Shown here piece after piece: positions 2,714 to 54,000 of a DNA stretch of 64,000 nt (position 1 is the stretch's first letter; the number at the start of each line of letters is the position of its first letter). The stretch lies in the NCBI RefSeq assembly GCF_013167455.1, contig NZ_CP038328.1; one strand, given 5' to 3'. The notes beneath the pieces are model-generated. The model made no database searches, had not been told where the DNA came from, and was given only the letters and a program-made list of their open reading frames with translations. The stretch comes from Escherichia coli O157:H7. Its GTDB lineage: Bacteria > Pseudomonadota > Gammaproteobacteria > Enterobacterales > Enterobacteriaceae. The position numbers were made by a program, and so were the translations under genes.

Positions 2714-3175
2714 TATGGATTGCCTGTAAAGTTCATCGCTTTCTGCTTTCTATCATCGCAGGAGAAGGCGTAAAAGCAAGCGTTTAGCGACTCTTTATGA
2801 AGTCTGAAAAGTGAGGAAATGCTGCGAGTATAACGCTTACTCGTGAGGATTTATGTTCTGCTGGCAGTTTCGTGATCAACACCTCACGCCAGGATGGCTT
2901 TATGCACTATCGCAATGTGGTTTGTTTGTTGGCTTTTTTAGTTCCGTCAGCGTGAGGATGCTCGCTCGGTAAACCTGATCATAATGTTTACCAGAAACAG
3001 GGAAAGGCGTGGTGTAACTGCGCCCTAATGAAGAGACAAATCTTTCGCTACACAGAGACATCATTATTCCGGTGACGGATGAATCATGCCGTAACGCAGC
3101 CGCAGAGGTGCAAACTTTGAAGCCCTGACCCCATGCCGCTATACTGCCGCCATCACTTAAAAACAGGATACAACA

Positions 3176-3535: not shown

Positions 3536-6082
3536 TCACGAAAAATACTGCTGTAATAGCGGCGTATCGTGATCCTGATTGGCAGGCGGCATGTTACCGA
3601 TAGATTTTGTGCGGAACGGAATCACCTGTTCACGACCATCAACCTTCACAATCTGATAGAACTGCGGCAGGTTGAAGTTGATGAAGCTTGAGCCGTAGGT
3701 AAAACGGTCATGCGATGACGAGTAGAAGCGACTGACGTCACGTACCAGCTCCTCTTTGCTGCCTTCGCAGTGGTGATACACCTCAACCCGATTGCTTTCG
3801 TCGAGAATGTAGATATTAAAGCCATTCTCATCTTGCGTTTCTTCGAAAAAGAACTGGATGATCCCTTCGCTGGCAAAGCCGTCCACCACCGCCGGTAATT
3901 TGACGTGATTGGTTTCAACCTGCACTGACAGGCCGTGCAGTTTGTTATGCGAAATAGCGCCATAAAACTCGATGGCGTTCTCCAGTTTCTGTACCGATAC
4001 ATTCAGGCGTTCGAAGAACAAGCCCCAGGTTTGACCAGAAACGCGCAGCGCCTTGAAACGCCCGGTTTCCTGGCGGGTGCTGGAAAGACGCAATTCAATA
4101 CACTCAGAAACCAGTTGCTGCACGCGAGTACGAATTAAGCCGCGCAGATGCTGGCTATAACAGAAGACTTCCACGCTATCTGGCGGTGCGGCGTCCTGAT
4201 GCATTTTGCCGAGAATAGTTTTCAGGGCTTCGATCATCGATTGCTCGCCGTTGAAGTGCAGCGTACGCACTTCATTCCACGAGTTGCGATACAGCAGGTC
4301 AACGCTACCTACCAGGCAATTTTGATTCTCGCCAAAGCTGAAGACATCCAGCTTACGGAAATCAAAATGCACCACCTGATTGCGGAACGCAGCTGTCGGG
4401 TCATATTCCAGGTTAACGATAATCGCCAGATGGCGGATCTCACACGGGCTGTAGAGCGCCTTCGGTGTCGGTGCAGGTAAGCGCAACGGGAAATGGTGCG
4501 ACACGTCGGCGACCATCTCCTGCAACTTAGGCAAATCGACAATGCCGTTACCTTTAATATACAAGCGGGTGCGCGAGGTCAGCAGGCCGTTAAACCATGC
4601 CCACGCCACCAGTTTATTCAGGTAACGGTTATATTCCAGCGGCTGATGGCTGATGATCGACTCAATATTTGGCGCGCGGTTATACAGATACCAACCTGAA
4701 CGGTTAGCCCGGCCCGGCGGCACATAAATAAAGGTCAGATTCGGTTCCGAGAGATCGGGTGAAATCTGCGGGTTTACCAGCGTCACTTTACCTGGTAATG
4801 CTTCAAACGCGGCATACAGCTTACGCGTCAGCACGCCGATATCCTGCGGACTGGCGGAGACGCTAAGGTTATTGCGACGCGCAAAGCGGATCAGATTACG
4901 GTAGCTCTGCATCATCGCGTCGAGCAACTCGTTGTGCGCCTCACGCACCTGATCAATCTTCCAGTTAGCGCGGTTATCGAGCATTGCCAGACGAGCTTCG
5001 TCCCACCCCCACTCGCTCACTAACTGGCTCAACACTGCGCGACGCCAGCCTACGCAGGCGCGTTCACGGCTGAGCTTTTCGCACACTTTTAAATAGAAGC
5101 AGCGACGTACTAAATCCAGACGGGTGAAATCTTCAATCGCCGTCAGGTATTCAGTAACACGCTCCAGCATCATGCAGTAAGGATCGAGGCCAAACGATAC
5201 AATCTCGCCGTCGTGCAAACGCTGTTTGATATCTTTCGCCAGCAGGCGTGGGTTCGGGTATTCCCAGGAATAGGCTTCCAGCAGCAGTGTCTTCAGCACC
5301 GCTTTGTATGGAGAATCGATACTCTTGTAGAGTTGCCAAAGGCTGGCACCGAAGTATTCTTCAGCGGAAAGCGAGCTTAAGCCGCCGAGATCCAGCCATT
5401 CATTTGGCGTCAGCACGCCTTGTGCGTAGAGCGTCATTACGTAGTCATCGTAATGCTCTTCTTCGTCGCACGGCACCATATTCCACAGAATACGCTTACC
5501 GGCGAGACGCACGGCGGTACGATAAAATTCATCAAGCAGCAGTATATGCTGGGTGGAGCCACAATCTTCGCCCCCCAGACTGCCACTCTCGTTGTGGCGA
5601 AAACGGTTTTCATCAATCAGGAAGAAGCTAACTTCCACACCCAGCGAGGCGGCCCAGCTTTCCAGCAGGCTGCATTTACGTTGTAGCAACTGGCGCTCTT
5701 CGCTATCGAGCCAGGATTGATGACAGACCCAGATATCCAGGTCAGAGGAACAACTTTGCCCTACGGACGAGGTGCTGCCCATGGTGTATACACCAGTAAT
5801 TGGAAGCTCACCTTTCGGCGGGTCCTGTACTGACATTCCACGATACAGTTCAAGCTCGTTCAGGTAGTGGCGTTGAGTTTCATCAGGCGTGTAAAGGCAA
5901 ATGCCTTTGGGAACGTTACCATCAAGGTAACCCGGCATTAGCGGATGGTGATAGTGCAACAATGTCGGCAGTAGACTGTAGACCTGTTGGAATGCAGGCC
6001 CCATAGCAGCAAGCGCGCGATCCACACGCAATTGATTTATGGCATCCAGTCTCTGTTTCAGAGTCTCAATATAGAGGTACAA
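3536..6082 (-). CDS. cyaA: Adenylate cyclase (class I), TTG start
   Basis: 848-aa [21 protein letters not shown]...; start codon at 6080-6082 is TTG on the minus strand (caa on +). Confidence 0.95.
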
Positions 6083-6468
6083 GACGTATCGCCTGATTTG
6101 CTACCCGTCATGACTGTGATTCCGCCAACATCAACGGTAACACGCGGCATTCGGGATATTTCGTATGTCAAAGGTAACCGTTACCACTTTTCGCGCCTGG
6201 TTTTTTTAGTTTCACGACGAAAAAATGGTCTAAAACGTGATCAATTTAACACCTTGCTGATTGACCGTAAAGAAAGATGCGCTACATACAAGTGTAGCAC
6301 CGTTTATTCTCTGTAAATTCCTTATTACGACGGCGTGAAACGCCTGTCAGGATCCACTGCCAGACCTCATTTTACGGTTTGCGCAGGCGTCTACGTTTCA
6401 CCACAACACTGACATCACTCTGGCAAGGATGTTAGGATGGACCACGGATGATAATGACGGTAACAAGC

Positions 6469-8168: not shown

Positions 8169-9428
8169 ATGACGGAACAAGAAAAAACCTCCGCCGTGGT
8201 TGAAGAGACCAGGGAGGCCGTGGACACCACGTCACAACCTGTCGCAACAGAAAAAAAGAGTAAGAACAATACCGCATTGATTCTCAGCGCGGTGGCTATC
8301 GCTATTGCTCTGGCGGCGGGCGTCGGTTTGTATGGCTGGGGTAAACAACAGGCCGTCAATCAGACCGCCACCAGCGATGCCCTGGCTAACCAACTGACGG
8401 CATTGCAAAAAGCCCAGGAGAGCCAAAAAGTCGAGCTGGAAGGCATTATTAAGCAACAAGCTGCACAGCTTAAGCAGGCGAATCGTCAGCAAGAAACGCT
8501 GGCAAAACAGTTGGATGAAGTCCAACAAAAGGTCGCCACCATTTCCGGCAGCGATGCTAAAACCTGGCTGCTGGCTCAGGCCGATTTTCTGGTGAAACTC
8601 GCCGGACGGAAGCTGTGGAGCGATCAGGACGTCACGACCGCTGCAGCGTTGCTGAAAAGTGCAGACGCCAGCCTGGCGGATATGAATGACCCGAGTCTGA
8701 TTACCGTTCGTCGGGCAATTACCGATGATATCGCCAGCCTTTCTGCAGTATCGCAGGTGGATTATGACGGCATCATCCTTAAGCTTAATCAGCTTTCAAA
8801 TCAGGTAGATAACCTGCGTCTGGCCGATAATGACAGCGATGGTTCGCCGATGGATTCCGACGGTGAAGAGCTTTCCAGTTCCATCAGCGAATGGCGTATC
8901 AATCTGCAAAAAAGCTGGCAGAACTTTATGGACAACTTCATTACGATTCGCCGTCGTGATGACACCGCCGTACCGCTGTTAGCGCCAAATCAGGATATCT
9001 ATCTGCGCGAAAATATTCGCTCTCGCCTGCTGGTCGCAGCACAAGCTGTACCGCGTCACCAGCAAGAGACTTATCGCCAGGCGCTGGAGAACGTCTCCAC
9101 CTGGGTACGTGCTTACTACGATACTGATGATGCCACCACCAAAGCGTTCCTCGACGAGGTAGACCAGTTAAGCCAGCAAAATATCTCGATGGATCTTCCG
9201 GAAACCCTGCAAAGCCAGGCGATGCTGGAAAAACTGATGCAGACTCGCGTGCGTAACCTGCTGGCACAACCGGCAGCGGGGACAACGGAAGCTAAACCTG
9301 CACCTGCACCTGCACCTGCACCTGCACCTGCACCTGCACCTGCACCTGCACCTGCACCTGCACCTGCACCTGCACCTGCACCTGCACCGCAAGCTGATAC
9401 TCCGGCAGCCGCGCCGCAAGGAGAATAA
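8169..9428 (+). CDS. hemX: HemX membrane protein with expanded C-terminal (Pro-Ala)15 tract
   Basis: 419-aa [21 protein letters not shown]..., single TM segment, coiled-coil rich; C-terminal PA repeat. Confidence 0.88.
9297..9386 (+). repeat. Perfect hexanucleotide microsatellite (CCTGCA)15, in frame within hemX
   Basis: 15 uninterrupted CCTGCA units read directly from the sequence, codon-aligned to hemX (cct gca = Pro-Ala). Confidence 0.95.
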
Positions 9429-10673: not shown

Positions 10674-10880
10674 TAAAAAAACGCCTGCTCTTATTACGGA
10701 GCAGGCGTTAAAACAGGTCTGTATGACAACAAGTGGGTGCTTCACTCAACGTTGTGTCCATGGTGTCTGATGAGGCATAAGCGACATCTGTCAGTGGACG
10801 ATAAGCACCGTAAACGGCTCTGCGTCATTCCGGAGTTTATGAGGCACTAAGGCGAACATAAGAGATGGAATGAGCATCTA
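10674..10880 (-). ncRNA. glmZ: GlmZ small RNA (Hfq/RapZ-dependent activator of glmS)
   Basis: Minus-strand sequence GTAGATGCTCATTCCATCTCTTATGTTCGCC...CGCCTGCTCCGTAATAAGAGCAGGCGTTTTTTT matches the GlmZ sequence as I recall it; ends in an 11-bp perfect stem plus U7 terminator; hemY-aslA intergenic location. Confidence 0.85.
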
Positions 10881-11305
10881 CTCGTTTATTATGCCACAGA
10901 GAATCGGGAAATAACATCCCTTAACACTTGTTATGAGATAATTCTGTAATCCTCTTTGCTTCCTGAGTAATAACTTCCTGAGTGAATATTTAACCTGAGC
11001 TTGATCCTACACATACTTATTATGAATGATAAAATTCATTCAATTAATAACACATATATTAATTGCCGTTAAAACTAAAAACAGCATCAATAATCAACGC
11101 GATATAATAAACCTGCCTTACATATCAACTGCGCCAGAGGTAGGATTGAAAACGCTCTCCTGATTTTTAAATTCATTTCTTGGATAAATAAATAATTTAT
11201 TTTTATCACTATTATTTATGTAATCATCCTGTCAGGGAGAGGGATCTCAATTATCAATGCTTAATTACGTCATCATTTTGTTGACATGAAACCGGAGCAT
11301 TTTGC

Positions 11306-14510: not shown

Positions 14511-14587
14511 TGGTCGGCGAGAGAGGATTCGAACCTCCGACCCACTGGTCCCAAACCAGTTGCGCTACCAAGCTGCGCTACTCGCCG
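14511..14587 (-). tRNA. proM: tRNA-Pro (anticodon UGG)
   Basis: 77-nt reverse-complement match to canonical E. coli tRNA-Pro incl. encoded CCA. Confidence 0.95.
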
Positions 14588-14629
14588 AAATACTGCTTTT
14601 TGAATTTTTAGTTCAATTCTTTAAAGTCG

Positions 14630-14716
14630 TGGTGCGAGGGGGGGGACTTGAACCCCCACGTCCGTAAGGACACTAACACCTGAAGCTAGCGCGTCTACCA
14701 ATTCCGCCACCTTCGC
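14630..14716 (-). tRNA. leuT: tRNA-Leu (anticodon CAG), distal copy
   Basis: 87-nt match to E. coli tRNA-Leu(CAG) with long variable arm and CCA. Confidence 0.93.
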
Positions 14717-14736
14717 ATTGTCACAACTTCTAATAA

Positions 14737-14813
14737 TGGGGTGGCTAATGGGATTCGAACCTCCGACCCACTGGTCCCAAACCAGTTGCGCTACCAAGCT
14801 GCGCTACTCGCCG
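14737..14813 (-). pseudogene. Chimeric tRNA-like element: tRNA-Pro(UGG) 5' body fused at the T-loop to the tRNA-His 3' T-stem/acceptor strand
   Basis: Read 5'->3' on minus strand: CGGCGAGTAGCGCAGCTTGGTAGCGCAACTGGTTTGGGACCAGTGGGTCGGAG (proM-identical) + GTTCGAATCCCATTAGCCACCCCA (hisR-identical); acceptor and T stems no longer base-pair. Confidence 0.85.
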
Positions 14814-14855
14814 AAATACTGCTTTTTGAATTTTTAGTTCAATTCTTTAAAGTCG

Positions 14856-14942
14856 TGGTGCGAGGGGGGGGACTTGAACCCCCACGTCCGTAAGGACACT
14901 AACACCTGAAGCTAGCGCGTCTACCAATTCCGCCACCTTCGC
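14856..14942 (-). tRNA. leuT: tRNA-Leu (anticodon CAG), proximal copy
   Basis: Identical 87-nt sequence to the copy at 14630-14716. Confidence 0.93.
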
Positions 14943-14962
14943 ATTGTCACAACTTCTAATAA

Positions 14963-15039
14963 TGGGGTGGCTAATGGGATTCGAACCCACGACAACTGGA
15001 ATCACAATCCAGGGCTCTACCAACTGAGCTATAGCCACC
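14963..15039 (-). tRNA. hisR: tRNA-His (anticodon GUG)
   Basis: 77-nt match to E. coli tRNA-His incl. extra 5' G(-1) and CCA. Confidence 0.95.
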
Positions 15040-26288: not shown

Positions 26289-27415
26289 AGTGATATCCGA
26301 TTATTTTTTAACGCTTCCAGAATGCGAGAGCATGCCTGACCATCACCATACGGGTTATGGGCGCGGCTCATAGTTTGATATTCGTTTTCGTCTTTTAAAA
26401 GACGCGTCACTTCCTCGACAATTCGCTGCTTATCCGTGCCTACCAGACGCACCGTACCCGCCGTCACCGCTTCCGGACGCTCAGTGGTATCGCGCATCAC
26501 CAGCACCGGTTTCCCCAGCGAAGGCGCTTCTTCCTGAATGCCGCCTGAGTCGGTCAAAATCAGCCAGGCGTGGTTCATCAGCCAGACAAACGGTAAATAC
26601 TCCTGAGGATCGATCAGAATGACATTTTTCACATGCCCCAGAATGCGATTGACCGGCTCTCTGACGTTCGGGTTGAGATGCACCGGATAGACAATCTGGA
26701 TGTCCTGGTGCGTGGTGGCGATGTCTGCCAGCGCGTGGCAGATTTCTTCAAAGCCACGACCGAAGCTTTCACGCCTGTGACCGGTCACCAGAATCATCTT
26801 TTTATCGGGGTCGATAAACGGGTAATTTGCCGCAAGTTCTGAACGCAGCGTGTCGCTGCTCATCACCTGGTCACGCACCCATAACAGTGCATCAATGACT
26901 GTATTACCGGTAATGAAGATTCGGCTATCTGCAACGTTTTCACGCAGCAAGTTTTGCCGGGAAGTTTCGGTTGGAGAGAAATGATACATCGCCAGATGCC
27001 CGGTCAATGTACGGTTAGCCTCTTCCGGCCACGGCGAATAGAGATCGCCCGTGCGTAAACCAGCCTCAACGTGACCAACAGGAATACGCTGATAAAACGC
27101 CGCCAGGCTGGTTGCCAGCGTCGTCGTTGTGTCGCCGTGAACCAGCACGACGTCTGGTTTGAACTCGGCAAGAATAGGTTTTAGCCCTTCCAGAATCCGA
27201 CAGGTTATCTCTGTCAGGCCCTGTCCTGGCTGCATTATGTTGAGATCGTAGTCAGGTACAATGGAAAAGAGTTTCAGCACCTGATCGAGCATCTCCCGAT
27301 GCTGCGCAGTGACGCAAACTTTAGCCTCAAAAAAAGGATCTTTTGCCAACGCATGCACCAACGGAGCCATCTTGATGGCTTCCGGGCGCGTACCAAATAC
27401 AGTCAGTACTTTCAC
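26285..27415 (-). CDS. wecB: UDP-N-acetylglucosamine 2-epimerase, GTG start
   Basis: Translation (V)[19 protein letters not shown]...; track ORF extends to 27457; GTG at 27413-27415 matches the known N-terminus as I recall. Confidence 0.85.
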
Positions 27416-27470
27416 ATCGATTCTCTTCGAATAAGCGGCGAGCGCCTTTGCGCTCACCGCAGCAGTGTTG

Positions 27471-31457: not shown

Positions 31458-31787
31458 TTACGCCAGGTTAGCGTCGAGGAACTCTTTCAACTGACCTTTA
31501 GACAGTGCGCCCACTTTGGTTGCCGCCACTTCACCGTTTTTGAACAGCAGCAGAGTCGGGATACCACGGATGCCATATTTCGGCGCAGTGCCAGGGTTTT
31601 GATCGATGTTCAGTTTTGCAACGGTCAGTTTGCCCTGATATTCGTCAGCGATTTCATCCAGAATCGGGGCGATCATTTTGCACGGACCGCACCACTCTGC
31701 CCAGAAATCGACGAGGATCGCCCCGTCCGCTTTGAGTACATCCGTGTCAAAACTGTCGTCAGTCAGGTGAATAATTTTATCGCTCAT
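31458..31787 (-). CDS. trxA: Thioredoxin 1
   Basis: Translation [41 protein letters not shown]... (WCGPC active site); track ORF has a 35-codon upstream extension. Confidence 0.97.
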
Positions 31788-31917
31788 ATATAACTCCACA
31801 GGAATAAGCCTGGCGTGTTGGTTTCGTTGTTGGTGTAACATTAACCAACTAAAGGTTGACTTTATTTCACCGGATACGCTTTCGTAAAGCAATAGTAAGC
31901 TGATATTCTACCACACT

Positions 31918-47089: not shown

Positions 47090-47188
47090 CTAAGCCTTTC
47101 CTCGTCCAAGTGCAGCCCCGCACGGTGGGATAATAATCACCACCACGCTAATCACGACCAGGCTAATCACTCGTAGAAGGGCTGTCAT
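47090..47188 (-). CDS. ilvL: ilvGMEDA leader peptide (Val/Ile/Leu-rich)
   Basis: 32-codon minus-strand ORF MTALLRVISLVVISVVVIIIPPCGAALGRGKA. Confidence 0.9.
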   Translation of the reverse strand: MTALLRVISLVVISVVVIIIPPCGAALGRGKA

Positions 47189-47540
47189 TTTGTCTTTTCT
47201 TGCATCTTGTTCGAAGGAATGCCTAAAGAGTTACCATAGATTTTGCGAATAGCACAAGATATTTTTTGGCCGTTTTTTATGATGGCTTTAATAATTTCAA
47301 TAGAAATTGTTGTTTTTTAAAAAGAAAATAGTGAGTGAAAAAAATTCAATTTCAGTACGAATGTTGTTCCCTCCCTCGTAGTTCATCCTTTGTCCGCTGC
47401 ATTTTTGCGAGCATCATTCCACCGCCAGAACAACTCAACTTCACTTGCACAAATAAACAGGAATCAGCCACTAAAATTCACGAATTAGCGGGCTACAGCA
47501 GCGATATCTTATGCACATAATGGTGACTCAAGGAGGGCTT

Positions 47541-53807: not shown

Positions 53808-54000
53808 TCACAACCCGAAGATGTTTCTTTCGATTCATCATCGTGTTGCGAAAATTTGAGAGACTCACGAACAACTCTCGTTGTTCAGTGTTTCAATTTT
53901 CAGCTTGATCCAGATTTTTAAAGAGCAAATATCTCAAACATCACCCGAAGATGAGTTTTGAGATATTAAGGTCGGCGACTTTCACTCACAAACCAGCAAG

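Follow-up and report, generated by a model that had tools for sequence, protein, structure and literature searches.

Non-ATG start codons of cyaA and seven other genes in the xerC-rbsA segment of an Escherichia coli O157:H7-type chromosome

Introduction

Several genes between xerC and rbsA on the Escherichia coli O157:H7-type chromosome are annotated as beginning with a codon other than ATG. Are these codons the true translation starts, and does their identity matter for expression? The stretch of DNA analysed here (64,000 nucleotides, called the window) covers this segment. A 2-kb probe around the cyaA start, lying under cyaA and hemC, matches many chromosomes of E. coli O157:H7 at 100% identity; of 5426 complete E. 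coli genomes, 5425 contain it. An initial annotation, made from the sequence, had named five non-ATG starts, namely TTG for cyaA and GTG for wecB, ilvY, hdfR and yifN.

Results

Start codons in the window

The RefSeq/PGAP record of NZ_CP022689.1 was mapped onto the window to provide the annotation. The two sequences differ only by 54 bp in hemX and five SNPs; the 54 extra hemX bases are in the window, so that window coordinates past about 9335 equal those of the reference plus 54. The hemX gene carries an (ACCTGC)15.5 repeat (9296-9388) encoding a Pro-Ala run in HemX, and since this repeat is 54 bp (nine units) longer in the window than in NZ_CP022689.1, it is a strain-variable in-frame repeat.

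The mapped annotation contains 52 coding sequences (CDS), with 44 ATG, six GTG and two TTG starts. The eight non-ATG genes (15%) are cyaA and rbsR with TTG, and wecB, the yifN-like gene, ilvY, hdfR, wecA and rffC/wecD with GTG (Table 1). In all eight, the GTG or TTG stands in frame at the 5' end and the translation runs without internal stops. For the five genes of the initial annotation, the gene name, codon and coordinate were each right and equal to those of the mapped record; its list left out the TTG of rbsR and the GTG of wecA and of rffC/wecD.

Table 1 Start codons and other features of the window (coordinates are window positions).
Feature	Position	Strand	Basis
cyaA UUG initiation codon	6080..6082	-	sequence read; RefSeq CDS 3536-6082
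cyaA conserved translation-initiation region AATCAGGCGATACGTC, weak SD-like AGG	6083..6099	-	98 distinct sequences
GlmZ/SraJ sRNA	10675-10881	-	Rfam gathering-level match
rffC/wecD GUG initiation codon	23079..23081	-	RefSeq CDS; cross-species reads
wecB GUG initiation codon	27413..27415	-	RefSeq CDS; four further species
wzzE-wecB intergenic hairpin	27435..27460	-	11-bp GC-rich stem, -29.6 kcal/mol, z = -4.2
wecA GUG initiation codon	29630..29632	-	RefSeq CDS; GTG 37/37 species
TrxA 5'UTR thermometer	31758-31857	-	Rfam gathering-level match
GUG initiation codon of yifN-like PemK/MazF toxin gene	37088..37090	+	RefSeq CDS; 19 homologs
ilvY GUG initiation codon	39688..39690	+	RefSeq CDS; 80-species comparison
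Rev39 5'UTR family over ilvL leader	46970-47259	-	Rfam gathering-level match
hdfR GUG initiation codon	49543..49545	+	first start-type codon after stop; 50-species comparison
StyR-44 in rrn spacer	53815-53923	-	Rfam gathering-level match
rbsR UUG initiation codon	59282..59284	-	RefSeq CDS and mechanical ORF

The initial annotation had also remarked that the open reading frame (ORF) track extends several genes upstream. This is consistent with the six-frame ORF list, whose mechanical ORFs begin upstream of the annotated start in three genes, at a GTG (27457) in wecB, an ATG (39604) in ilvY and a GTG (37046) in yifN. These longer ORFs lend some support to the alternative that a part of the non-ATG starts is mis-annotated, with the true starts at the upstream codons just given or at downstream ATGs (codon 27 of cyaA, codon 16 of wecB, codon 41 of yifN and codon 72 of hdfR). 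WecB proteins of 390-391 aa in JGI and older NCBI records, together with upstream-extended CyaA calls, point in the same direction. Judged against the gene-by-gene evidence given below, we consider this alternative extremely improbable. The ortholog alignment proposed with the initial annotation was run for all five of its genes and backed each start position, and for none of the five did the orthologs favour another in-frame ATG. Throughout the cyaA, ilvY, hdfR, wecB, wecA and yifN comparisons, the homologous codon is ATG, GTG or TTG. The coding sequence 5' of the starts is not conserved, and the upstream stops of the orthologs are variable in position or very close.

The non-ATG background of E. 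coli K-12 is about 17%. In the O157 Sakai annotation, 10% of the starts are non-ATG (PMC5597208). The probability of at least eight non-ATG starts among 52 is 0.14 at a background of 10% and 0.68 at one of 17%, and an enrichment in the window was rejected on these values, 8 of 52 being unremarkable. As 15% is a normal E. coli rate, the window is without enrichment.

A Shine-Dalgarno (SD)-like sequence 5-13 nt upstream was the feature looked for: rbsR and yifN have a strong match, hdfR, ilvY and rffC a moderate one, and cyaA, wecB and wecA a weak one (duplexes of -2.7 to -2.9 kcal/mol), so that the SD gives little independent support to the last three starts. The SD strength of the ATG and non-ATG genes of the window is alike (Mann-Whitney p = 0.85), and the idea that a stronger SD compensates for a non-ATG start was rejected accordingly. 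The TRAINSPOTTER N-terminomics supplements contain no match for cyaA, wecB, ilvY, hdfR, wecA or rbsR.

A second alternative accepts the non-ATG codons as true starts and regards them as selectively neutral mutation accidents, without a role in the expression level. The agreement of the window frequency with the genome background and the similar SD strength of the two groups of genes are in its favour. We hold this alternative to be possible, if unlikely, and the conservation of the individual start codons bears on it.

The UUG start of cyaA

Read on the minus strand, the start of cyaA is ...caggcgatacgtc TTG TAC CTC TAT ATT GAG..., with T-T-G at 6082-6080 (caa on the plus strand). An in-frame TAG lies seven codons 5' of the TTG, and no ATG occurs in frame before codon 27. 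Further cyaA starts were collected from metagenome contigs with a degenerate DNA pattern matching residues 6-19; because the pattern begins 15 nt 3' of the start, it does not select for the identity of the start codon. TTG was found in 118 of the 118 contigs with a readable site, which are not phylogenetically independent and share the N-terminal peptide by construction. These contigs represent 98 distinct sequences, with identities to E. coli over the first 100 residues down to about 55%, and TTG is present in 98/98 without any interchange with ATG. At Leu codons 8, 12, 18 and 24, the same 98 sequences switch freely between CTG, TTG, CTA and TTA; the ATG of codon 27 is absent in two of them, and GTG is not kept at codon 20. 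The TTG recurs in the same sequence context in Serratia grimesii and Pantoea, and the cyaA start of Vibrio ponticus (53% identity) is also TTG. The Pseudomonas CyaA homolog starts with ATG and has a non-homologous N-terminus. The invariance of the TTG across the sampled sequences indicates that this codon is under selection.

These observations also speak against mis-annotation of cyaA. The in-frame upstream stop lies 6 to 98 codons from the TTG across the scanned sequences, so the upstream extension is not conserved, and public CyaA gene calls that are extended upstream have Leu at the TTG position. A start at codon 27 would remove the first 26 conserved residues of CyaA.

The UUG start of E. 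coli cyaA was described previously (Roy et al. 1983; Reddy, Peterkofsky & McKenney 1985, both cited in PMC5499595), and the window has the same gene with the same codon. According to PMC5499595, mutagenesis gave an adenylate cyclase output of 1:2:6 for UUG:GUG:AUG (Reddy et al. 1985), the UUG to AUG mutation caused a six-fold rise in expression, and conservation of the UUG in many Enterobacterales and other gammaproteobacteria had already been noted. The description of the cyaA TTG as a classic low-efficiency start in the initial annotation agrees with this ratio, and the six-fold rise argues against neutrality of the codon. Experimental proof of low efficiency pertains to cyaA, and for the GTG genes we infer it. 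We see no difference from the literature case; the present analysis adds the conservation count of 118/118 contigs plus Vibrio, and the translation-initiation sequence of the window cyaA matches that of other Enterobacterales.

Nearly every one of the 17 nt 5' of the TTG (AATCAGGCGATACGTC) is conserved to 90% or more among the 98 distinct sequences, and the sequence further 5' is not conserved. The SD duplex has an energy of only -2.9 kcal/mol, so that a weak SD is joined to the weakest canonical start codon.

The 5' coding end was inspected in the same 98 sequences. Codons 2-13 (6044-6079, minus strand) show unusually low synonymous variation at codons 2, 3, 6 and 10-13, and codon 11 is the rare Arg codon AGA in 92 of the 98, a pattern of low variation that suggests a constraint at the RNA level. 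One could go further and view the invariant UUG, the 17 nt and the near-invariant codons as a conserved cis-acting translational control element and not just a weak start, a proposal that we regard as quite doubtful. Such an element could be a binding site, or a small hairpin occluding the SD, that tunes initiation to the nutritional state. RNAalifold around the cyaA start gave only -5.3 kcal/mol, with a 5-bp hairpin in which the SD-like AGGCG pairs with CGUCU (-4 to +1); a conserved RNA structure was judged unconvincing, as this hairpin is marginal and shows no compensatory changes.

Two further observations concern the cyaA neighbourhood. A PDB search at E <= 1e-20 returned no chain related in sequence to the class I adenylate cyclase CyaA (window 3536-6082). 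Between lptM and cyaY, the RefSeq record places a frameshifted and truncated pseudogene of the DKNYY family at 2926-3104 on the plus strand (2872-3050 in L001).

GUG starts in the wec genes

The GTG of wecB lies in the conserved sequence cgaagagaatcgatGTGaaagta in all four further species compared (Salmonella, Kluyvera, Enterobacter and Pseudescherichia), and most WecB ortholog proteins have 376 aa. The first residue of the E. coli WecB chains 1F6D and 1VGV (PDB) is the GUG-start residue, which reflects construct design. Two points argue against the longer wecB ORF. A stop is found six codons upstream in two of the four species, and the upstream in-frame GTG (27457-27455) is buried in the 11-bp stem of the wzzE-wecB hairpin and has no SD.

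The stem of this hairpin is formed by GCGGUGAGCGC/GCGCUCGCCGC and is followed by UUAUUC. The hairpin might serve in attenuation, mRNA stabilisation or re-initiation within the wec operon. The wecB GTG also overlaps an out-of-frame ATG-TGA start-stop (cgATGTGAaa, window 27412-27417, minus strand); the cgATGTGA motif is kept in Salmonella, Kluyvera and Enterobacter, and Pseudescherichia has cgTTGTGA.

The start of rffC/wecD is GTG in Salmonella and Kluyvera and ATG in Pseudescherichia. The wecA start was followed in the species sample described next.

Conserved and variable starts of ilvY, hdfR and wecA

A genome-collection scan with IlvY and its 10-kb flanks yielded 80 Enterobacteriaceae species, from which the ilvY, hdfR and wecA comparisons were drawn. 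The codon homologous to the ilvY start is GTG in 64 species, ATG in 15 of the 80 and TTG in one (E. albertii), and thus of start type in 80/80. A GGAG-like SD is conserved across the sample. An in-frame stop occurs at most seven codons upstream in most of the 80 species, so the 28-codon ATG extension of E. coli ilvY is not conserved. A literature search for the ilvY GTG start found no useful statement on it.

Of the 50 species compared for hdfR, 49 have GTG at the homologous position and one has TTG. The SD GCGGAGA is conserved, an upstream TAA lies at a distance of 12 codons, and in nearly all of these species no further ATG occurs before codon 72. Counted from the annotated starts, the Pfam domain HTH_1 (LysR HTH) begins at residue 3 of IlvY and residue 4 of HdfR, and a start at the downstream hdfR ATG would remove the HTH of HdfR, against the mis-annotation of this gene.

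The three genes differ in how far their start codons vary. The ilvY codon changed among GTG, ATG and TTG inside one family, as would be expected under neutrality. In the same sample of species, by contrast, hdfR (49/50) and wecA (37/37) have retained GTG, and this suggests that the two codons may be under real constraint. The cyaA TTG is likewise difficult to reconcile with neutrality: it is invariant in 98 distinct sequences with N-terminal identities down to about 55%, and Vibrio shares it, whereas ilvY varies in a far narrower taxon sample.

The yifN-like toxin gene and rbsR

The yifN-like gene has the SD TAAGGAG upstream of its GTG (-9.2 kcal/mol). All 19 homologs, from Klebsiella to Xanthomonas, start at the alignment column of 37088 with M-A/P-I-x-F/Y-x-P-K-V/I-G. 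The same codon is ATG in Klebsiella, Serratia and Pseudomonas; GTG in E. coli and ATG in other genera is again compatible with neutrality. For both ilvY and yifN, the different start codons are exchanged exactly at the annotated codon, which is evidence against mis-annotation, and a start at the downstream yifN ATG would cut off the conserved N-terminal stretch PKVGEILEC of YifN.

The gene is accessory: 4018 of 5426 E. coli genomes carry it and about 26% do not, and yifN is frameshifted in K-12. The 80 IlvY-anchored loci of other species gave no tblastn match to yifN, and the homologs came from a separate search; one Klebsiella michiganensis genome has a yifN-like gene at the same rep-ppiC site. 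In the window, this PemK/MazF gene (37088-37537, plus strand) is intact, and the RefSeq record has no adjacent antitoxin gene. Its homologs form a conserved set of about 150 aa from Klebsiella to Xanthomonas.

The rbsR TTG is preceded by the strong SD GAGGTGA, located 3 nt 5' of the codon (6 nt from the GAGG core; -10.1 kcal/mol), and the TTG is favoured as the start by SD spacing alone. An ATG is also present at codon 4 of rbsR. Both ATG and non-ATG calls occur for rbsR across E. coli genomes (PMC11445065).

A tandem duplication in a tRNA operon of the window

The argX-hisR-leuT-proM tRNA operon contains a perfect 226-bp tandem duplication (window 14525-14987), giving a second tRNA-Leu(cag) and a chimeric tRNA-like element at 14739-14813 on the minus strand. 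In the chimeric element, the first 63 nt come from tRNA-Pro(tgg) and the final part is the last 12 nt of tRNA-His, the junction being the shared T-loop GGTTCGAATCC. It is unannotated in the RefSeq record, was called tRNA-Pro by ARAGORN, and has an Rfam score of 34.6 bits compared with 65.8 for the real tRNA-Pro. As its acceptor stem is unable to pair, the element is probably a dead recombination scar.

Discussion

The non-ATG starts of the window are real, correctly interpreted and already known. We are highly confident that the eight codons are ordinary bacterial non-AUG initiation codons, together with the following explanation as a whole. fMet-tRNA(fMet) decodes GUG and UUG in the P site of the ribosome, so that the protein would still begin with formyl-methionine; owing to the mismatch at the first codon position, initiation is less efficient than at AUG. 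Adenylate cyclase synthesis is probably kept low by the UUG of cyaA jointly with the weak SD and the conserved 17-nt region, and the UUG appears to be held by strong purifying selection across Enterobacterales, being present in Vibrio too. The GUG codons of hdfR and wecA, which are nearly invariant across the sampled Enterobacteriaceae, and that of wecB, seen in four further species, most likely hold down the expression of a LysR regulator and of the enzymes that open the ECA pathway. The start-codon identity of ilvY and yifN looks weakly constrained, as these codons drift among GUG, AUG and UUG in relatives. The analysis itself establishes where each start codon lies, which codon it is and how far it is conserved; for the starts other than that of cyaA, both the low efficiency and the adaptive value are what we infer. 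The highly expressed tufA and hupB also use GUG, as stated in PMC5499595, so a non-AUG start alone is no proof of low expression.

Some known systems resemble the genes studied here. The low-abundance transcription regulators lacI, cra and mlc also initiate at GTG or TTG (PMC11445065, Nat Microbiol 2024), and three of the eight non-ATG genes of the window (ilvY, hdfR and rbsR) encode low-copy transcription regulators, which fits the carbohydrate-regulator pattern of that study. In that work, the experiments demonstrated a fitness effect of the start codon for lacI only. A non-AUG start is likewise found in infC, where it serves a regulatory purpose (PMC5499595). However, the infC codon is the non-canonical AUU, which is discriminated against by IF3, and infC is autoregulated via IF3; the window genes use the canonical alternatives GUG and UUG, and for them an autoregulatory loop is neither known nor indicated.

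In conclusion, these results matter chiefly for the quality of annotation. Tracks built on the longest ORF make wecB, ilvY and yifN too long and conceal non-ATG starts; ortholog comparison confirms the RefSeq starts. No open question is made newly testable, and the limitation of adenylate cyclase synthesis by the cyaA UUG restates a textbook case. What is added for these bacteria is the contrast between strongly conserved non-ATG starts (cyaA, hdfR and wecA) and drifting ones (ilvY and yifN).
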